From a virus: a DNA stretch of 64,000 nucleotides. Below, piece after piece: positions 3,699-37,568 of the stretch. How positions within the stretch are numbered: position 1 is the stretch's first letter; every line of letters begins with the position of its first letter. The stretch is taken from IMG/VR virus record IMGVR_UViG_3300043446_004967, positions 32,001 to 96,000 of that record; one strand, given 5' to 3'. The translations under genes and the position numbers were made by a program. The notes under the pieces were generated by a model. It saw nothing but the letters and a program-made list of their open reading frames with translations, made no database searches and was not told where the DNA came from.

Positions 3699-4511
3699 AT
3701 GCCGGTATATTTAAACGGCACGTTAATTGAAAAGCGGTATTATCCGTGCGGGGAGATCTCAGTGAGACTGGACGACCCCGCCCTTGCCTCACAGGGGAAT
3801 ACCCTGCGGGTCGACTATAAGGACTCTGATGACATCATTCAGATGCTGCTAGTCGCGGACGCAGTACGTAGAGTAGCCCCCGACAGGGCACTCTCTCTTG
3901 TCCTTCCGTACATCCCTTACGGCAGGCAGGATAGAGTCTGCCACCCTGGGGAACCTTTTTCGCTTAAAGTTTTGGCGGATATTATTAACGTCCAGAACTT
4001 TACCGCAGTGTACACGGTAGAACCGCATTCTGTGGCGTCGGCTAACTACATTCACCGCCTTTGCTCAGTAAGCGCGGCGACGTTAATCACCTACGAGGAT
4101 GGGAAAGGCGTGCGCGACCTGATACGGGAGGAAACCCCCGTGCTGCTCTCTCCCGATAAAGGCGGGAGGCAGCGGGTACTTGAGGTGGCGACCGCACTGG
4201 CCCAACACAATATCGTCTGTGCCGCCGCATACGCCGACAAGCGTAGGGAGGACGGGCAGGTAACGTTTACCCACGTGCCGGAAATTTGCGCCGGGAGAAA
4301 TATCTTGGTCATAGACGACATTTGCGACGGCGGGGCAACGTTCCTAAAGTTGGCGGACGCCTTACAAGAGCGCGGAGCGAGGGATCTTTACTTGTATGTG
4401 ACTCACGGATTTTTTACAAAAGGAACCGAGGAGTTACTTAAAAAATACAAAAAGATCTTTTATTACAAAGACTACCAACACATTGCCATATTGGAGCAAA
4501 AAAATGCGTAA
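3699..4511 (+). CDS. PRPS-like protein (likely NARP1 Adps, ADPR-PP synthetase)
   Basis: PYIPYGRQDR, SPDKGG, VIDDICDGGATF, YVTHG motifs; adjacent to NAMPT-like gene. Confidence 0.88.
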   Translation: MPVYLNGTLIEKRYYPCGEISVRLDDPALASQGNTLRVDYKDSDDIIQMLLVADAVRRVAPDRALSLVLPYIPYGRQDRVCHPGEPFSLKVLADIINVQNFTAVYTVEPHSVASANYIHRLCSVSAATLITYEDGKGVRDLIREETPVLLSPDKGGRQRVLEVATALAQHNIVCAAAYADKRREDGQVTFTHVPEICAGRNILVIDDICDGGATFLKLADALQERGARDLYLYVTHGFFTKGTEELLKKYKKIFYYKDYQHIAILEQKNA

Positions 4512-6039
4512 CCCTATGTTTATTACCGACTTTTATAAGATCTCCCACCGAAACATGTACCCGCAAGGTACAGAGGAAGTGTACTCGAACTTGACCCCAA
4601 GGAGCGGTAAGCTCGCTAAGGGCGTTGCAGGCGGTCTGCCGTTCACCGACGGAGTATTTGTCTTCGGGACAGAAAACTTTATACGGGACTACCTTTTAGG
4701 AGAATGGGAGACGGGTTTTTTCCGGCGGCCTTTAGAGGAGGTTTTGGAGGAGTACGTCAGTCTGCTATCTGACACACTCAACGGACCTGTGGAGAGTTCG
4801 CACGTTGCGGAATTGCACGGCCTCGGCTATCTGCCGTTAGAAATTAAAGCGCTCCCCGAGGGCGCGTTCGTGCCGGTACAAGTTCCGATGGTGACGGTAC
4901 GCAACACGTTGCCAAAATTCTACTGGCTGACGAACTACATAGAAACGGCCATGTCCGTTTACTTGTGGAAACCTTCCACAATTGCCACCATCGCCGCAAA
5001 TTACCGCGCGGTTTTGCTCATGTACGGGGAACGCACGACCGCCGACACAAGCTACGTGGACTACCAAGCCCACGATTTTTCATTTCGGGGACTGACGTCT
5101 CTGCGCGACGCGGAGCTGACCGGCGCGGGGCACCTCACAGCGTTTAAGGGGTCTGACTGCGTACCCGCGTTCCAGTTCCTGCACCGGCTCTATGCCGCCC
5201 CCTACGGTGAACTGGGGGGTTCAGTTCCCGCCAGTGAGCACTCCGTTATGTGCGCGGGGGAAGAAGAAGGAGAGTTTGAAACCATCCGCCGGTTGGTTAC
5301 GGAAGTGCATCCGACAGGGACCGTCTCCATTGTCGCGGATACGTGGAATCTGTGGCGTGTGCTTACGGACTATTTGCCGCGTCTGAAAGACGTAATCTTA
5401 GCCAGAGAAGGTAAAGTAGTCATTCGTCCCGACAGCGGAGATCCTGTAAAAATCGTAACGGGAGACCCCGAGGCCGGAGGTGACGGGCCTTACGCGGACG
5501 CGGAGCGTAAAGGAGTGGTACGCGCTCTGTACGATATCTTCGGGGGAACCGTAAACCCGAAAGGCTACAAAGAGCTGGACCCGCATATCGGGGCCATTTA
5601 TGGCGATTCCATCACCGTTTCCCGGGCGCAGGAGATACTGAGCCGTTTAGAAAAAAACGGCTTTGCCGCAAACAATATATATTTTGGGGTCGGGTCGTAC
5701 TCTTACGGGCACATGACCCGAGACACGTTCGGTTTTGCGGTAAAAGCGACCTCCGTTACGATCAACGGAGAGCGGCGTGCCATCCAGAAAGATCCTGTCA
5801 CGGGGGACCGCGAAAAAAAATCCGCTCGGGGTTATCTTGTCGTGGCGTATGACACTCTCGCAGGAAGGTACGTGTTGAGTGACGGCAGACCGTCCCCGGA
5901 AGGCGGGTTTCTGGAGACCATTTTCCTCAACGGGAAGCGCGTCGGGCCCGAGGCCACGTCATCTACGTTCGCCACGATCAGAGCGCGGGTACAGGGTAAG
6001 GCGGCGGAATGGGCAACCCGGTATACGCAGGGGATGTAA
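4504..6039 (+). CDS. NAMPT/NadV-like phosphoribosyltransferase (likely NARP1 Namat)
   Basis: TDFYKISH, HDFSFRG, PASEHSVM, IRPDSGDP, YGDSIT, TRDTFGFAVKAT, KKSARG. Confidence 0.92.
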   Translation: MRNPMFITDFYKISHRNMYPQGTEEVYSNLTPRSGKLAKGVAGGLPFTDGVFVFGTENFIRDYLLGEWETGFFRRPLEEVLEEYVSLLSDTLNGPVESSHVAELHGLGYLPLEIKALPEGAFVPVQVPMVTVRNTLPKFYWLTNYIETAMSVYLWKPSTIATIAANYRAVLLMYGERTTADTSYVDYQAHDFSFRGLTSLRDAELTGAGHLTAFKGSDCVPAFQFLHRLYAAPYGELGGSVPASEHSVMCAGEEEGEFETIRRLVTEVHPTGTVSIVADTWNLWRVLTDYLPRLKDVILAREGKVVIRPDSGDPVKIVTGDPEAGGDGPYADAERKGVVRALYDIFGGTVNPKGYKELDPHIGAIYGDSITVSRAQEILSRLEKNGFAANNIYFGVGSYSYGHMTRDTFGFAVKATSVTINGERRAIQKDPVTGDREKKSARGYLVVAYDTLAGRYVLSDGRPSPEGGFLETIFLNGKRVGPEATSSTFATIRARVQGKAAEWATRYTQGM

Positions 6040-19621: not shown

Positions 19622-20179
19622 TTAATCCCGGAAAATCATCTCGTATCCGGGCGTTGGCTCGTTAGCTTCCTCTACCAAGCTAAACCCGTTATCAAACACG
19701 GCCCGAAACACTGGTTTATAAGCTATTCCCGGGTAATAACTGACGTACCCTGTATGTTCTACCCGAATGACGTGCAGAAAAGTGTTACCTTTTTTGTCAA
19801 AGATTTTATCCCCCACGCGAAAGCGTGGTTGCATCCGCTCAAGTAATAACATACTCCGGGCTAACGCGTGAAATTTTGTCCCTGTTTGTACAATACGTGC
19901 GTCTCGCTCGCTGCATTTAAGTACATGTTGCTGTATCTCGTAAACAGCGCGTTGACACTCTCCCACAGTAGCGGAAGCTACTTTAGCCATTTTCCCTATG
20001 ACAGGCTCGAAGGCGATAGCGATAAACCTATCAACGCGCCACCAAAGGCGCTTTGCTTCTTCGTATTCTTCCGCATGGGTATCTTCCGTGCGAAAAAGAT
20101 GCTCCATCATTAATAATCCTTCCAAAAAAGGAGAAAGTGTCTGAAGCTCTCGTTTTATTTTTTCTCTATTGTTAGTCAT
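19622..20179 (-). CDS. Early phage protein
   Basis: Promoter cassette upstream, terminator hairpin at ~19598-19619. Confidence 0.7.
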   Translation of the reverse strand: MTNNREKIKRELQTLSPFLEGLLMMEHLFRTEDTHAEEYEEAKRLWWRVDRFIAIAFEPVIGKMAKVASATVGECQRAVYEIQQHVLKCSERDARIVQTGTKFHALARSMLLLERMQPRFRVGDKIFDKKGNTFLHVIRVEHTGYVSYYPGIAYKPVFRAVFDNGFSLVEEANEPTPGYEMIFRD

Positions 20180-20598
20180 TGTCTTATCTCCTTTTTCTTT
20201 CGATACCCCGAATATATTCCCTATTTCGTCTCTTGTCAAGGGACAAAATAGGGAATCTTGCAAAAAATTGCAGGAGTAAATTACTACAAAGCACTACACT
20301 ATACCGCCCGCCAACCACGTTAAATTTACTATACTATTCGTCACTTACGTTACTAGCCGACACTATGGCTATGTATAATTTACTATACTATCCTGCCGAT
20401 TACTATACAAAAATCTACTATAAAGTAACTCAATAAACCGCCTACTATTTACTATCTACTATTCCCGTTTACTATTTACTATCTACTATTTGCTAGCTAA
20501 ACCTACTATACTATTAGCCAAGCCGAAAAGAGCCAAGGAAGGCCAAGGAGCGCGTCCCCTAGCCTTCCGCTACCCGTGTAGCCTGTAGCCCCTGCGGG

Positions 20599-21264
20599 CT
20601 ACGCTACGAGCCTAATATTGGCCTTAGCGGCGGCTTCCAACCTGCCCGCTCGTAAAAATTGTAACACTGCCGTCGATTCCTCAACAGTTAAGTCTGTTAG
20701 GGTTAAACTCACCTCCGCAGGGGAATCCTTATCCGCGTTAACCTCAATAGTTGCAGGTACTCCCGGGATAAAAGCCCTGCGTTCCGGGGAAGGCTTGTAC
20801 CGGCAGTCCACCGCATAAGTATGAATCTTTTTCGTATAGCTATTTACGGGGTTCCCCGTTAGCGCGGTAAACTTGGCGTAAGCCTCGTTCACAACTTGCT
20901 CCCGCCGCGCGTTAGCGTCGCAGCTGGCTTTAGCTTGTTTAAACCAAGCTAAATATTCCGGTAATAACCGGCGGGAAATTTCCGACGCTACCGCCTTAGC
21001 GTCGCGATCATACCCCACGTTAATGCTTTTCGTAGGGTTGCCACCCAAATAATCTTTTGGGACACATCCGGATATCCGCCAAGGCTTCCCGAAGCGGTAT
21101 GAAATAAATAGTTCCGCCCCTTCGGGACTAATCAACGTCCCCCGTAAAAGCCAGTCCACAAACGGCGTTTCACCCGGCCTCCAGCCGGACCCCAAAGCGT
21201 TGCAAACATTCTGTAATTTTGTTTTAAACTCGCAAAACGTCTCTGCGTCGAAAGAGTCTTTCAT
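20599..21264 (-). CDS. Early phage protein (paralog of 18898..19434)
   Basis: KSINVGYDRDAKAVASEISRRLL; AAGGAG RBS. Confidence 0.7.
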   Translation of the reverse strand: MKDSFDAETFCEFKTKLQNVCNALGSGWRPGETPFVDWLLRGTLISPEGAELFISYRFGKPWRISGCVPKDYLGGNPTKSINVGYDRDAKAVASEISRRLLPEYLAWFKQAKASCDANARREQVVNEAYAKFTALTGNPVNSYTKKIHTYAVDCRYKPSPERRAFIPGVPATIEVNADKDSPAEVSLTLTDLTVEESTAVLQFLRAGRLEAAAKANIRLVA

Positions 21265-21338
21265 GCCGGTCTCTCCTTTGTTTGTCTGGTAATCCGAATA
21301 TATCCCTTTTAGTGTCTCTTGTCAAGGGACACTTTGCC

Positions 21339-21818
21339 CTATTTATACCAATAATACCCGCAGTCTACGTCCGCGTCCACGACATCAGGTGCTCCCTCCG
21401 CTCCGGCGGCTTTTGCCGTCAATAGCTCATTCGCAAGGCGCACCAATTCAGCGCGGTGACTCGCCGCCTCTGCGTGTGCCCCCCACCATAGACCTAACTT
21501 CTCCAGTTCTGCGGGCAGAACGGCCACGTAAGGGCGGATAAGCTGGAAGAACATCCAACTAAGGGTGCCACGCGCATCGCCTACGGCGCGGCTAAATGCT
21601 ACTTCAAAAGCCCACGAGATTGTCGGCATCCCAAAGCTTTTTACGTAAAAACGGTCTAAGACCCCCTCAAGCAGGGGCAGGCACGCCTTAACCATTTGGG
21701 CTATGCCGTACTCTTTCTTTACGGCAGGCGGTAAGATTCGCATTGCCAATATGCAGTGCGCGTGCAGAATAGCGCAATTCCGCGCCATATCATGGAAATT
21801 GTCCCGAAAATCCGTCAT
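21339..21818 (-). CDS. Hypothetical protein
   Basis: ORF with TGTGACAATACT upstream. Confidence 0.55.
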   Translation of the reverse strand: MTDFRDNFHDMARNCAILHAHCILAMRILPPAVKKEYGIAQMVKACLPLLEGVLDRFYVKSFGMPTISWAFEVAFSRAVGDARGTLSWMFFQLIRPYVAVLPAELEKLGLWWGAHAEAASHRAELVRLANELLTAKAAGAEGAPDVVDADVDCGYYWYK

Positions 21819-22357: not shown

Positions 22358-22543
22358 TTTATCTCCCTTTTTTCTGATAACCCGAATATATTCCCTTTTT
22401 CGTCTCTTGTCAAGAGACAATTAGCCTACCGGAACCAGTAGGCGAGACTACCCTCTTTCTTACGTAAGGTTGTTACAGACGTCCCCCCCCCCGGAAAAAT
22501 AATTTTCGAGGGAATAAGGTGCGCGCTGCAATTATTGCAGAGC

Positions 22544-25327: not shown

Positions 25328-25735
25328 TCATTTTCGCGCAATTTCTGAGGACAAGGGGTTAACTGCAACCCCTTGTCGGAGCACTTCGTAGTGAAGATGA
25401 GGCCCCGTGGAATATCCCGTAGACCCTACGTAACCAATTATCGCCCCTCGCGTCACGGACGCCCCCGGCCTAACGCCATCAGCAAAACGGGATAAGTGCG
25501 CGTAACGAGTAGCTAAGCCCGCAGCGTGACGTAGCGTAACCATATTCCCGTAGCCGCCACGCCTTCCCGCAGACTTTACCACGCCGTCCCCCGTCGCATA
25601 TACGGGCGTCCCCAAAGGGGCGGCAAAATCCACGCCCTTATGCATACGAGAGCACTTAGCAATAGGATGACGCCGGCGTCCGAATCGAGAAGTAATCCGG
25701 GCGTGTTTAATAGGCAGCCCCAACGAAGGGCACAC
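25328..25735 (-). CDS. M23 family peptidoglycan endopeptidase domain
   Basis: HKGVDFAAPLGTPV, YAHL, STGPHLHYEV; probably the -1 frame continuation of 25747..26370. Confidence 0.9.
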   Translation of the reverse strand: MCPSLGLPIKHARITSRFGRRRHPIAKCSRMHKGVDFAAPLGTPVYATGDGVVKSAGRRGGYGNMVTLRHAAGLATRYAHLSRFADGVRPGASVTRGAIIGYVGSTGYSTGPHLHYEVLRQGVAVNPLSSEIARK

Positions 25736-25746
25736 GGCGCCCCCGG

Positions 25747-26370
25747 CTACGAGGCAGGCTTTTTTCCGGAAGGCTCTCCCTCTTTAGAAGGAAGGCCGTC
25801 GCCCCCAAAAAACCGATCAAGCAGACCCACGTCTGACTTAGGGGGAAGCTGTTCCCCCTCGTCCCCGGCTGGCGTATCGCCGTTGTACCTTGGGCCCGGC
25901 AAAACTCCGTCGGGGCCTGACCCCGAAGACGGCGCAATGACTTTCGTCTGCCCCTCCCCGTCGTGCTGGTCAACGAAGTCCCCCAAAGAGGACTCCTTCT
26001 CCGGGGCATACGCGACTTCCGCCCGAGCCGTTTGCCCCGAAGCAAGAAAAGACCTGCGAGCCGGGTAATAAGCATACTCGTTACCGCCCTTAACAAAAGC
26101 GACCCTCGCTCCCTTACCGTGAATCTCCGAAGCAAACCCTATTAATGCCCCCGGCCCCCCTTCCAAAATGTGCCGCTGGTAAACGGACTCGCATCCGTCA
26201 ATGATTTTATCCTCAGTGTACGTATAGTCGCATACGTAGCGGGTAGCTCTTTGCGCCTCCGCCAAAGACGCCTCCAACCCTTTCAGCTGCGAGCGGGCGC
26301 TTAGTCTTCCGCTTACCGCTCCAACGACAACCGCAACTACGGCGACCGCCCCAAACAATTTTTTTGTCAT
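25747..26370 (-). CDS. Signal-anchored N-terminal part of the M23 peptidase
   Basis: MTKKLFGAVAVVAVVVG signal; ends at an A_AAA_AAG slippery site. Confidence 0.7.
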   Translation of the reverse strand: MTKKLFGAVAVVAVVVGAVSGRLSARSQLKGLEASLAEAQRATRYVCDYTYTEDKIIDGCESVYQRHILEGGPGALIGFASEIHGKGARVAFVKGGNEYAYYPARRSFLASGQTARAEVAYAPEKESSLGDFVDQHDGEGQTKVIAPSSGSGPDGVLPGPRYNGDTPAGDEGEQLPPKSDVGLLDRFFGGDGLPSKEGEPSGKKPAS

Positions 26371-26416
26371 AATTTTTTAGTCTCCTTATTTTATAAATTG
26401 CCCCCGGACAAGCCGT

Positions 26417-26749
26417 CTAAGGACGCAAAGGAGCAAGCAAAACGCTCGGACGAGATGCCCGCGCGGAGGGGTTCCCCTCATCGTCATCGTCATCGCCATC
26501 TTCATGGCTGTCCCGCTCCGGAGCCGGAAGATACGACACGGGCGCCGCGCGAGGAATAGCCCGAAGATGCGGGCTAAGCGCGTGCTGGAATCCCAGCCCC
26601 AAGGAAAGCAGCGAAACGGCAATTAAGGCCGCCGCCGTTGTAATCCAAACCCCCCCACGCTCAGCGGTCTTCGCCTTGGCCCCGGCGAATAAGGCCGCAA
26701 CACCGGAAATAATAGTAACGCCGAAAGCTAGTAAAATGTAATAGTCCAT
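26417..26749 (-). CDS. Two-TM membrane protein
   Basis: Two hydrophobic helices and an acidic tail. Confidence 0.6.
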   Translation of the reverse strand: MDYYILLAFGVTIISGVAALFAGAKAKTAERGGVWITTAAALIAVSLLSLGLGFQHALSPHLRAIPRAAPVSYLPAPERDSHEDGDDDDDEGNPSARASRPSVLLAPLRP

Positions 26750-29267: not shown

Positions 29268-29783
29268 TCATCCCAAGGAGGAAGTACTCGACGGGATCCT
29301 TATTAGTATTATTAACTCCCCTCCCCTCCCCTCCGTCGGAACGGGAAGGGGGTCCGCGTTCGGCCTGCTCCGTTTTTGCGGACCCCGCTCTGCAAAAATA
29401 TCTATAAAACGTTTTCGTACGTCCTCGTTGGAAAGGGAACAACACTCGCGTTCGGCGCGTGTTATTTTGCGTAGGTGCTCCGTAAGGCGGAACTCCGTCT
29501 TGCTGACATGACGAGGATCCAATCCAAGATCTTCCATGACATCTTTAACATTGCTCCCCTCGACAAAGCGGAGCGCCGTCTCCAAGGTGCATTTAACCTC
29601 TCGACAACGCTTTAATAGACTTCCCATACTCATGTCCACGTACCGCTCGTGGCCGAGAGGCCAACGGCACCTCGACACAACGTCGCTATGGAGACGCGCG
29701 ACCTCACGGTCGGCGTGAAGCGTAACTTTGTGGTATTCGGCCACAACCGGAGGAACCCGATCAAACCTGTCCCAGTGCGTCAT
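29268..29783 (-). CDS. Hypothetical protein (paralog of 29799..30176)
   Basis: WPLGHERY and ERE..SLSNE motifs; GGGAGG RBS. Confidence 0.6.
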   Translation of the reverse strand: MTHWDRFDRVPPVVAEYHKVTLHADREVARLHSDVVSRCRWPLGHERYVDMSMGSLLKRCREVKCTLETALRFVEGSNVKDVMEDLGLDPRHVSKTEFRLTEHLRKITRAERECCSLSNEDVRKRFIDIFAERGPQKRSRPNADPLPVPTEGRGGELIILIRIPSSTSSLG

Positions 29784-29798
29784 TAAGGCGCCTCCCTT

Positions 29799-30176
29799 CT
29801 ATTGGAAAATTCTTTTTATTAACTCCCGCGCCCCTTCGTCGGAAAGGGAGGGGAGTTCGCGTTCTGCCTGGGCTACCCGAGATAACCCCCAAGCGGGGCG
29901 TTCCTCCGCTAACTCTATGGTCGAGGAGCCGTAGCAAAAACTAGCCATCGCACCCTCCACGCCGCTCTCTCGCCAGAAATTTGCAGCAGCGACGAAATCT
30001 TCTTTTATCCAGACCAGCCGCTGGGCTATCTTTTCTTTATTCATTTCCCAATATTGTTCGTGGCCCGGCGGCCAGTCATCCATTGAGGAAATATCGCTCA
30101 GGAGATTTTCTATTTCCCCTTCCGCGCTGCGCATAAGTCTGAGAAACTCTTCATAAGTTTCTAAGGGGCTGTTCAT
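29799..30176 (-). CDS. Hypothetical protein (paralog of 29268..29783)
   Basis: WPPGHEQY and ERE..SLSDE motifs. Confidence 0.65.
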   Translation of the reverse strand: MNSPLETYEEFLRLMRSAEGEIENLLSDISSMDDWPPGHEQYWEMNKEKIAQRLVWIKEDFVAAANFWRESGVEGAMASFCYGSSTIELAEERPAWGLSRVAQAERELPSLSDEGARELIKRIFQ

Positions 30177-30195
30177 TTATATCCCCTCTACTTCT

Positions 30196-30336
30196 CTACT
30201 TTAACTCGTTCACTTTTGGCTTTTGTTGTGCCAAAATAACATCTAAGGTGGCATTTAACTTCGTCACGGCAATGAGAAGTTTTAAAACCGCTTCGCATGC
30301 CTCTTTTTCTTTTTTCTTTTTGTCAAATCAAAACAT
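30196..30336 (-). pseudogene. Small gene with TGA at codon 3
   Basis: AAGGAGG RBS, ATG TTT TGA, then 43 open codons. Confidence 0.45.
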
Positions 30337-30355
30337 TAGGAAGCCTCCTTTTTTG

Positions 30356-30718
30356 TTACAAATCGTTTTCTTCTATATCCACTACTTCGTCATAAACCAT
30401 CTCTACCTCTGGATGGCGCTCAAACAAATCGTATAGTTTATCAAAAAACTCATAGTAATCGCCGTTTCCTGCGCATAGTAGATAAGGTTTTCGGTGTAGC
30501 ATTATGATGTACCCCCGCGCATAGAAACTCGACATACTCAATGTTATTTCAACATTAACACGCCGATTGCCTATCATTTCCTCAAAATGTCTGTTGTAGT
30601 CCATAAAGAGAGGTATCATGAGGCGCAAAAGCTTCCCCAAATTCGGATCTTCACTAATAGCGCTCTCAATTTCTTCCTTTTGTTTATATAGGTAGAAATT
30701 TTCTGGGTTCCAGTTCAC
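30356..30718 (-). CDS. Hypothetical protein (AT-rich block)
   Basis: GGAGG RBS, GTG start. Confidence 0.6.
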   Translation of the reverse strand: MNWNPENFYLYKQKEEIESAISEDPNLGKLLRLMIPLFMDYNRHFEEMIGNRRVNVEITLSMSSFYARGYIIMLHRKPYLLCAGNGDYYEFFDKLYDLFERHPEVEMVYDEVVDIEENDL

Positions 30719-31308
30719 TACTTTCCCTCCTCCGCTCTTGACGACGCCACTCGGCTAAGATTTTGCGGTACACCCGTCGGGTTTTTTTCCGTTATTTCCA
30801 AGTCAGAACACGCACTGACTGCTTTAATAAGCTCGGCTATTATATGAAGATTGTCAAACTTATCAAATGAACCCAGTTCATAAGCCCATCCCAAATGGTT
30901 ATGCTGGTACGCTTCTTTTTTTTGCTCCTCTTTATGTGAAAATTTTATGTAGTATCGGTCGTGCGGCCATACAAAATTGTTTTGGTAATTGTTTTTTTTG
31001 CTTCTGGCTTTCGCTTTTTTCCCCCACCTATCCTCCCATCTTTTGTCCCATCGACGCCCGCCCTGTCTCTGAATGCGGACGGTAAATTCGCCTGTTTGGT
31101 AGTCTTCGCCGATTTGGCCAAGGGTGACCCATAACGAGGCAGGCCCCCATTTGCGCCCCCCTTCATCATCCTTGCCTTCTCGCCTTTTTCGGCTGTCTTT
31201 AAACGTTTGTGCCACCAAGTAGGCAAACTTGGCAGCTTCATATAGCCTGCCATGATCCGGAAAGGCGTAAATACCATCTTTTGTGATGGTGCATTTTGCA
31301 ATTGTCAT
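30718..31308 (-). CDS. Hypothetical protein
   Basis: RBS; coupled stop/start. Confidence 0.6.
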   Translation of the reverse strand: MTIAKCTITKDGIYAFPDHGRLYEAAKFAYLVAQTFKDSRKRREGKDDEGGRKWGPASLWVTLGQIGEDYQTGEFTVRIQRQGGRRWDKRWEDRWGKKAKARSKKNNYQNNFVWPHDRYYIKFSHKEEQKKEAYQHNHLGWAYELGSFDKFDNLHIIAELIKAVSACSDLEITEKNPTGVPQNLSRVASSRAEEGK

Positions 31309-31324
31309 TTTTATGCCCCTTCCT

Positions 31325-32176
31325 TTAGATTAATAATAATTTCTGGGTATCGGCCTCTACGTTCCTTTTTGGGAACATTTCTTCCGACGTATTGATGTGA
31401 TATTGAAGCATTCCGTTTTGCTTCGATAAGTTATATGTCGGAGTCTGCGAGTCCCATTCGCAGATCATTAATGTTCTTATTGCATCATTAATACCTATTA
31501 TTAATAAGTAATCCTGCATATTTGTTTCAAATATTTTAAACTGCAATCCCATTTTTTTAATTTCATTAAATACTTCAAATAACGCAATTTTTTTCCTCAC
31601 CCTGTGCGCGAGTATATGGGGAAAGGTTCTCTCTCCGTGACCAGTTTGTGCCTCGTCGCAATAATAATCAACCTCCTCGTAATACTTTTCTTCCGCCAGC
31701 TCAATAAGTGCGGATTTGTATTGATCCTCTTTAATAACATCATTTTTAGAGTATTCGTAAAATACCTCCTTACACTCATCTTCTTGTTGGCTTATTCTTT
31801 CGCCCAAGACTAAAAACGACTCGCTTCTTCCGTAGTCCTTTGCTACATTTTCGTGTGACTTTTTTTCGCTATTGATTATTTTATTCCTCATTATTTCTTT
31901 TTGAATATCTTTATTCCATTCGTAAAAATACTCAAAATGAAGCCCGGCCATTCCCTCATCATACGTCACGTATGTTTTATATCTTTTAGTCTTTCTTGAG
32001 CGAGATTCGTAAGTTATTACGGTTCTCGTATCCAATCTTTTTAAACATATAGTGATTTCATACTTCGTAAAAGGGTAACGTACTTCGGCCTTTATACCGT
32101 TTTTGGTTTTTTCTACTTTTGTTCCTTTTCCTTTTTCTTGGAAAAAGCGCATTAATGTTTTGTCATTAAGTGACAT
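31325..32176 (-). CDS. Hypothetical protein (AT-rich)
   Basis: 283-aa ORF. Confidence 0.65.
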   Translation of the reverse strand: MSLNDKTLMRFFQEKGKGTKVEKTKNGIKAEVRYPFTKYEITICLKRLDTRTVITYESRSRKTKRYKTYVTYDEGMAGLHFEYFYEWNKDIQKEIMRNKIINSEKKSHENVAKDYGRSESFLVLGERISQQEDECKEVFYEYSKNDVIKEDQYKSALIELAEEKYYEEVDYYCDEAQTGHGERTFPHILAHRVRKKIALFEVFNEIKKMGLQFKIFETNMQDYLLIIGINDAIRTLMICEWDSQTPTYNLSKQNGMLQYHINTSEEMFPKRNVEADTQKLLLI

Positions 32177-33375: not shown

Positions 33376-33403
33376 GATTTTCCCCTTTTTTGCTTCTAAT
33401 TTG

Positions 33404-33571
33404 TTTTTTTCTTCTAAAACCAGCCTACCCTCTTTCTTGTCGCTCGTCAAGAGACAAATTTGGCGAACACATAAAAAAACCGCCCCGTGCCCAGAGCGGT
33501 TCCCTTGTAAAGGTTTCTTATTCCTTCCGGATGAAGCCCAGGATAAGGCCCGGCGCAGCGGAGTCGAACCC
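33404..33571. repeat. 168-bp direct repeat, copy A (Ro60 3' end + terminator + promoter)
   Basis: Near-identical to 35493-35660. Confidence 0.92.
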
Positions 33572-37055: not shown

Positions 37056-37538
37056 TTAACGGATAAGCCCCGTTCGCACGTATAAATGCAAATCCTCCGG
37101 AAGCTCCTGTACCTCCCGGCTCTCCATAAAATAACGGTAAGCCGCCTTTCCCGCCGCTTCAACCTTCTCTCTCTTATCCCAGGAAAAATCCTCTGGGCTA
37201 TGCCATGAGGACCAGCCAATGGAGACAATGTAAACTGGCCGTGCCTTGCACGTAAACGAAGAAAACTCCGAACTCGCCCCGTTCTCCTTCAAAAATGGCA
37301 GACAGTAACGTTTAGCCTCGTCGCGTAGTAGCAGCGCGGGAGATACAAAAGCGTCAATGTAGTGCCCGTGGCCCGGAAACTCCGTCGTCAAAGACACTAA
37401 AGCCGTCTGAGCCGCGTTATATACGGCTGAGTATGCCTTATTAAAATCGGACTCCCCTTTCTCGGAGAGGAAGCGGCAAGAGAACCTGTCTAACCGTAAT
37501 AATCCGTCGACCTTATCGGAGGAAATGAACACCGGCAT
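37056..37538 (-). CDS. Hypothetical protein
   Basis: ORF with RBS. Confidence 0.55.
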   Translation of the reverse strand: MPVFISSDKVDGLLRLDRFSCRFLSEKGESDFNKAYSAVYNAAQTALVSLTTEFPGHGHYIDAFVSPALLLRDEAKRYCLPFLKENGASSEFSSFTCKARPVYIVSIGWSSWHSPEDFSWDKREKVEAAGKAAYRYFMESREVQELPEDLHLYVRTGLIR

Positions 37539-37568
37539 ATGCCTATTACCCTTTTTTGAAACTAAAAA

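Follow-up and report, generated by a model that had tools for sequence, protein, structure and literature searches.

The stretch of DNA analyzed here (the window, 64,000 nucleotides) spans bases 32001-96000 of an IMG/VR virus record that is 110,897 bp long and has direct terminal repeats. The phage is uncultured, with a genome of 111 kb and few known relatives, and no close relative of this genome was found among isolate phages. It encodes a family-A DNA polymerase, a DnaB-like helicase, a UvsX-like recombinase, a dUTPase, and a tape-measure protein. On the plus strand, positions 4483-6039 of the window hold a full-length gene for nicotinamide phosphoribosyltransferase (an NAD-salvage auxiliary gene; phrog_448, E=1e-176). 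The locus described below lies on the minus strand, flanked on one side by a replication and nucleotide-metabolism block and on the other by a promoter-rich early region. It consists of a gene for a predicted exported protein, ORF-A, and a peptidase domain of the M23 family encoded in the -1 frame relative to it. The M23 domain is the sole wall hydrolase detected in the genome, no lysozyme, SLT, Amidase_2, or M15_4 domain having been found elsewhere in a search over a list of families that is not exhaustive. The features of the locus, all on the minus strand, are as follows.

26417-26749, minus strand: ORF of 110 aa adjoining ORF-A upstream, with two predicted transmembrane (TM) segments and a C-terminal tail that is very acidic.
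26382-26387, minus strand: ribosome-binding site (RBS) of ORF-A, AAGGAG, 11 nt before the ATG; duplex with the anti-Shine-Dalgarno (anti-SD) sequence, -9.3 kcal/mol.
26370-25747, minus strand: ORF-A, 207 aa, of no known family, ending in KKPAS-stop.
25784-25786, minus strand: TAA that closes the -1 frame on its upstream side and so restricts the productive overlap to 11 codons.
25776-25781, minus strand: internal SD-like element AGGGAG, separated from the heptamer by a 10-nt spacer (25775-25766) and followed by no start codon.
25759-25765, minus strand: slippery heptamer A_AAA_AAG in the phase of ORF-A (codons GGA AAA AAG).
25717-25755, minus strand: imperfect, G+C-rich hairpin of 16 bp beginning 3 nt past the heptamer and burying the GGGGG and the GTG at 25735.
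25747-25749, minus strand: TAG, the 0-frame stop, 3 codons past the heptamer.
25733-25744, minus strand: rival start, consisting of GGGGG (25744-25740), a 4-nt spacer, and GTG (25735-25733), which would give a signal-less M23 protein of 135 aa.
25328-25759, minus strand: -1-frame continuation of 143 codons plus a stop, encoding a 14-residue linker and the M23 domain.
25355-25648, minus strand: Peptidase_M23 catalytic domain, MepM/ShyA-like, with the zinc motifs HxxxD (HKGVD) and HxH (HLH) intact.

The N-terminus of ORF-A is Lys-rich and continues into a 15-residue Val-rich hydrophobic core with a possible AxG/R cleavage site, and is predicted to serve as an export signal or anchor. The initial annotation called the protein signal-anchored; with a core of only 15 residues, the segment may instead be a cleavable Sec signal. 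The middle of the protein is a short helical stretch that contains two conserved Cys, and the C-terminal approximately 90 residues form a disordered tail rich in Gly, Pro, Asp, and Glu. No match to ORF-A was found in Pfam, NCBIfam, or PHROG. The AF2 model (pLDDT 46) leaves residues about 120-207 without structure and is too poor to warrant a fold search, and the ESM Atlas contained no usable look-alike. This layout fits an export signal followed by a stalk and a tether, and a disordered stretch of this length is better suited to be a tether than a free C-terminus, which counts in favor of a frameshift joining it to another domain. Two other identities were considered for this region and rejected: that ORF-A is a diverged N-domain of Csd3/MepM (hhalign probability 0.1%), and that an o-spanin lipoprotein is embedded in the gene (the alternative frames have no ORF with a lipobox).

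ORF-A ends with the codons GGA AAA AAG CCT GCC TCG TAG. The -1 frame is open only from position 25783 and comprises 151 codons, 8 before the slip point and 143 after it; the heptamer falls within the 11-codon productive overlap, and its presence in so short a stretch argues for frameshifting. A ribosome slipping back by one base at the heptamer would produce a protein of 347 aa (residues 1-204 of ORF-A plus the 143 codons). As originally claimed, the -1 reading gives KKACLVAGGAVCPSLGLPIK and runs on into Peptidase_M23, with the match to PF01551 covering profile positions 1-96 of 96 (E=1e-35; 122 bits against a gathering cut-off of 28.7). Recoding of the TAG as a sense codon was rejected, as the sequence places readthrough of that stop in the wrong frame.

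The M23 domain shows 60-65% identity to MepM-like proteins of alphaproteobacteria and was apparently captured from the MepM gene of an alphaproteobacterium-like host. Just 5' of the heptamer, the -1 frame contains untranslated codons for GRAFRK (window 25766-25783, minus strand), which resembles the G-K-S-V-R-K motif preceding the M23 domain in cellular MepM-like proteins. The resemblance could be a remnant of the gene captured from the host or could be due to chance, since the HMM alignment stops short of there. Five IMG/VR phage contigs of 80-90 kb (L108, L110, L111, L112, and L181) encode DNA polymerases 40-56% identical to that of this phage, and the M23 domain is absent from all five. These relatives mark the ORF-A/M23 module as a clade-specific accessory, and cannot inform the junction between its two parts. 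The module looks like a host catalytic domain captured, within one clade, behind an exported phage protein.

The junction was initially described as a frameshift cassette of the dnaX type. In Escherichia coli dnaX, an SD-like AGGGAG is located 10 nt upstream of A_AAA_AAG and a stem-loop begins about 6 nt after the heptamer. Every coordinate given in the initial annotation for the AGGGAG (25781-25776), the 10-nt spacer, and the in-frame heptamer (25765-25759) was confirmed on the minus strand. The AGGGAG forms a duplex of -8.5 kcal/mol with the anti-SD, and an SD-like match of equal strength is found 7-12 nt upstream at only 3.3% of in-frame coding positions. The SD spacing that stimulates -1 shifts is 9-14 nt (PMC5009743). 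In E. coli no site is more prone to shifting than A_AAA_AAG, a property that depends on the presence of a single tRNA-Lys, as in about half of bacteria (PMC5009743). The combination of an in-phase heptamer, an AGGGAG 10 nt upstream, and a hairpin downstream counts in favor of frameshifting.

Taken by itself, the A_AAA_AAG heptamer is weak evidence of frameshifting. There are 55 copies of AAAAAAG in the window against 24 expected (a 2.3-fold enrichment), largely because the RBSs of this genome are A-rich, so that naive counts of slippery heptamers are inflated. Many of these RBSs have the form AAAAAAGGG(G/A), for example those at 22420-22440, 33391-33410, and 37538-37560. In-phase copies of AAAAAAG number 9 in about 131 crude ORFs, and the one at 25765-25759 is the only copy to combine a 0-frame stop 3 codons on with a -1 extension as long as 143 codons. 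Elsewhere in the genome, four gene ends likewise carry an in-phase X_XXY_YYZ with an ORF behind it in the -1 frame. Gene ends of this kind, with the heptamers G_GGA_AAG, T_TTA_AAA, and A_AAA_AAC and a long ORF in the -1 frame, lie at window 30718-31308 (minus strand) and at 19933-21453 and 29534-31354 (minus strand) of G000:C1, and are probably ordinary overlapping gene junctions. The abundance of AAAAAAG and the existence of the four similar gene ends count against a frameshift. The structures that stimulate frameshifting are usually found 5-9 nt 3' of the slip site. The 79-nt downstream segment containing the hairpin folds with -26.5 kcal/mol, no better than G+C-rich shuffles (z=-0.04), and this, together with a distance of only 3 nt from the heptamer, also counts against a frameshift. 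Of the dnaX-like signal originally proposed, the three elements and their dnaX-like spacing stand but the hairpin is not statistically distinctive. A search of Rfam returned no frameshift-element match at the locus.

Homologues of ORF-A are rare. With ORF-A as the query, phmmer recovered nothing beyond its own cluster from 1.84 billion cluster representatives, and a word-indexed search added four further 90%-identity clusters, for a total of nine sequences with cluster members included, drawn from Logan, JGI, and ENA assemblies. They represent at least four lineages that are 58-65% identical to the ORF-A described here and, outside one near-identical group, 60-80% identical to each other. All nine end in KKPAS-stop with the position of the stop conserved, and K203-K204 is invariant throughout; the two Lys are preceded in every case by Gly or Val, both of which have codons with A as the last base. 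Of the 40 columns ahead of KKPAS, only 8 are invariant across four lineage representatives, and two of these (K196 and G198) lie over the SD-like element. A constant KKPAS-stop and an invariant K196 and G198 within a variable tail count, at the level of the protein, in favor of a frameshift. In keeping with the frameshift first proposed for this locus, none of the homologues is fused in-frame to M23, and the Lys-Lys and Lys..Gly are kept in the proteins. Indeed, no in-frame fusion of ORF-A and M23 was found among the 1.84 billion cluster representatives, and on contigs of 14,352, 12,808, 9,987, and 4,647 nt (paired by matching nucleotide size) a homologue of ORF-A is accompanied by a separately called M23 ORF.

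Among the lineages, the M23 part shows 72-82% identity and is thus better conserved than ORF-A, with HKGVD and HLH invariant in the alignment, suggesting that it is expressed. The M23 homologues were all called as proteins of 101-106 aa with their start at the Met inside the catalytic xMHxGxDF motif, or, in one lineage (P0131), at a Val (GTG) four residues after that Met. Calls that begin inside this motif are evidently truncated. The split between ORF-A and M23 appears from these comparisons to be ancient, fixed, and under selection. Additional searches added no relatives. Peptide patterns from ORF-A or its alignment detected none in viral, metagenome, or genome collections, tblastn of ORF-A against isolate phages returned nothing, and the closest M23 homologue, when used to scan metagenomes, yielded only cellular-type M23 domains at no more than 65% identity. 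The junction DNA pattern had a single chance match in viral contigs, located in a terminator (L106), and a search for short protein calls spanning the ORF-A/M23 junction found none.

The reading best supported by these sequences, though not established, is a programmed -1 ribosomal frameshift of the dnaX type that would give the 347-aa fusion, to which a probability of roughly 55% is assigned; the frameshift interpretation of the initial annotation is thereby partly supported. According to this model, most ribosomes translating ORF-A would terminate at the TAG (25749-25747) and release the 207-aa exported protein with its long flexible tail. A fraction would be delayed, with AGGGAG bound by the anti-SD and the hairpin positioned at the mRNA entrance; these would move back by one base on A_AAA_AAG and read the 143 codons of the -1 frame. 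The resulting protein would combine the export signal or anchor, the stalk, and a flexible linker with an active M23 peptidoglycan endopeptidase. The frameshift would be the route by which a signal-less M23 domain reaches the periplasm, and the dose of exported enzyme would be capped by the efficiency of slipping. A fixed ratio of non-catalytic to catalytic enzyme, as suggested at the outset, might follow from such an arrangement.

Observations on other phage genes bear on this model. Directly upstream of the tape-measure gene and outside the window, an ORF of 138 aa (G000:C1:6369-6785, minus strand; L187:2370-2786) is a tail-chaperone candidate. An in-phase A_AAA_AAC lies 4 codons ahead of its stop, its -1 extension of 130 codons ends at the start of the tape-measure gene, and the ORF is probably a canonical G/GT tail-chaperone frameshift gene. 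Slippage by -1 on an A-rich heptamer of the same geometry is very probably already in use in this phage-host pair, and a G/GT-type site in the same phage counts in favor of a frameshift at ORF-A. Additionally, membrane-anchored M23 proteins encoded in a single frame are found in other phage contigs (e.g., a 316-aa protein in L005), and the existence of anchored phage M23 proteins counts in the same direction. A broader proposal can be advanced tentatively, as a possibility falling somewhat short of even odds: that in a small clade of uncultured phages dnaX-like recoding acts as an export gate for a captured host endopeptidase. The M23 domain, having neither a start nor a signal of its own, would reach the periplasm only via slipping, in a sub-lethal or timed dose, and the unshifted product, abundant and equipped with an identical signal, stalk, and tail, would compete with the enzyme or regulate it.

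The most serious alternative, although less probable than the frameshift, is that ORF-A and M23 are two ordinary, translationally coupled genes and that re-initiation at GTG 25735 yields a cytoplasmic M23 enzyme of 135 aa. Ribosomes terminating on ORF-A would melt the hairpin that hides the GGGGG and the GTG, and the heptamer and AGGGAG would be a coincidental purine-rich sequence near a gene end. The M23 protein would then be an endolysin in need of a holin, possibly the two-TM ORF at 26749-26417. That ORF, a candidate holin or pinholin, has no match in Pfam or PHROG. The initial annotation stated that the M23 domain has no clear RBS of its own, which was too strong a claim: GTG 25735 is preceded by GGGGG 4 nt upstream, with a duplex of -8.6 kcal/mol, within the range of the genome's real RBSs. 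The distance of 11 nt from the ORF-A stop to the GTG, with a sequestering hairpin, is a textbook layout for coupling of termination and re-initiation, and SDs near gene ends are known to serve coupling (PMC5009743). The 135-aa product would contain the whole domain, as the HMM homology to cellular enzymes begins at PIKHARITS, six residues past the GTG, and small stand-alone M23 proteins are known from phages (136 aa in L021; phrog_7767). The recurrence of in-phase heptamers near gene ends in this genome is also in line with coincidence at this one.

Against coupling, a 4-nt, G+C-rich spacer followed by GTG is atypical for this genome, whose usual RBS is A-rich, with GGAG or GGGG placed 7-10 nt before an ATG; the spacing of its start sites has a mode of 8 nt with A-rich surroundings, and ATG accounts for 71% of inferred starts. 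The gene callers chose an upstream M23 start on none of the contigs, which counts in favor of a frameshift, and on the contig studied here an internal ATG without an RBS was preferred over GTG 25735. In the P0131 lineage the internal GTG was called even though a longer ORF would normally win, which weakly suggests that the upstream GTG lacks conservation. Coupling also leaves unexplained the invariance of KK and K..G in a variable tail, as well as the linker-like tail of 90 residues on an exported orphan protein. Frameshifting and coupled re-initiation are not mutually exclusive.

Transcriptional slippage is an improbable third explanation, in which the A6 run would gain an extra A during transcription by RNA polymerase, such that some mRNAs encode the fusion in one frame. 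The run is located exactly at the junction, one added A would give the same 347-aa product, and transcriptional slippage is documented for dnaX of Thermus (PMC5009743). However, efficient transcriptional slippage in bacteria is described on runs of 9 A or T (PMC5009743), in comparison with which A6 is short, and the mechanism assigns no role to the hairpin or to an SD-like element with spacing specific to -1 shifts. Indels favor homopolymer runs and such an indel-prone run lies at the junction, but an assembly or homopolymer error (a true A7 and a single ORF of 347 aa), a private mutation, or a decaying pseudogene with an unexpressed M23 domain is very improbable and largely refuted by the same stop past KKPAS in nine sequences of at least four lineages from JGI, ENA, and Logan assemblies, by the lack of any in-frame form among the cluster representatives searched, and by the identity of the M23 domains with their catalytic motifs intact.

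If the frameshift is real, it would extend dnaX-type cassettes to a new gene context. The locus shares with the tau/gamma system of dnaX the A_AAA_AAG heptamer, the AGGGAG 10 nt upstream, and a predicted 3' stem-loop. In some bacteria dnaX is "reversed", meaning that the long product requires the shift and a 0-frame stop directly follows the site (PMC5009743); the arrangement at ORF-A is similar in that the 0-frame stop comes almost directly after the heptamer and the extra domain is on the longer product. In contrast to dnaX, the gene is an unrelated phage gene known from its sequence, the hairpin is closer to the heptamer and not distinctive against shuffles, and a candidate re-initiation codon lies inside it. 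In phage lambda, the tail assembly chaperone gpG/gpGT is made via a -1 frameshift (also covered in PMC5009743). Like that gene, ORF-A belongs to a phage, carries its heptamer within a few codons of the 0-frame stop, and has a -1 extension of considerable length, but the gpG/gpGT site is conserved before the tape-measure gene and has a structural role, whereas the extension of ORF-A is an enzyme domain encoded in an early/replication region. An SD stimulator is estimated to occur in 56% of IS elements (PMC5009743). The IS3-family OrfA/OrfAB pair, which often has A_AAA_AAG with an SD and a structure, similarly yields a short upstream product and a fusion with a catalytic domain, but no transposase or IS features are found at this locus.

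The predicted fusion also resembles known M23 enzymes. As in the 316-aa protein of L005 and in MepM/ShyA, an anchor or signal and a spacer would precede a C-terminal M23 domain; these proteins are, however, encoded by single ORFs, and ORF-A has no homology to their N-terminal domains. In SAR endolysins, a weakly hydrophobic N-terminal TM domain is part of the same polypeptide as the lytic domain, and a pinholin acts as partner; at this locus, the Val-rich hydrophobic core of only 15 residues would be joined to M23 only upon a shift, and the candidate pinholin, the adjacent two-TM ORF, lacks a family match. Should coupling alone operate, the locus would be ordinary. If the shift is true, a cell-wall hydrolase would join the short list of bacterial and phage genes with a full three-part dnaX-type signal, and recoding would decide whether an enzyme domain is exported, going beyond the mere addition of a C-terminal extension. 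Every gene caller cut the M23 domain to a fragment that starts within the active-site motif, which suggests that such enzymes are mis-annotated in metagenomes.
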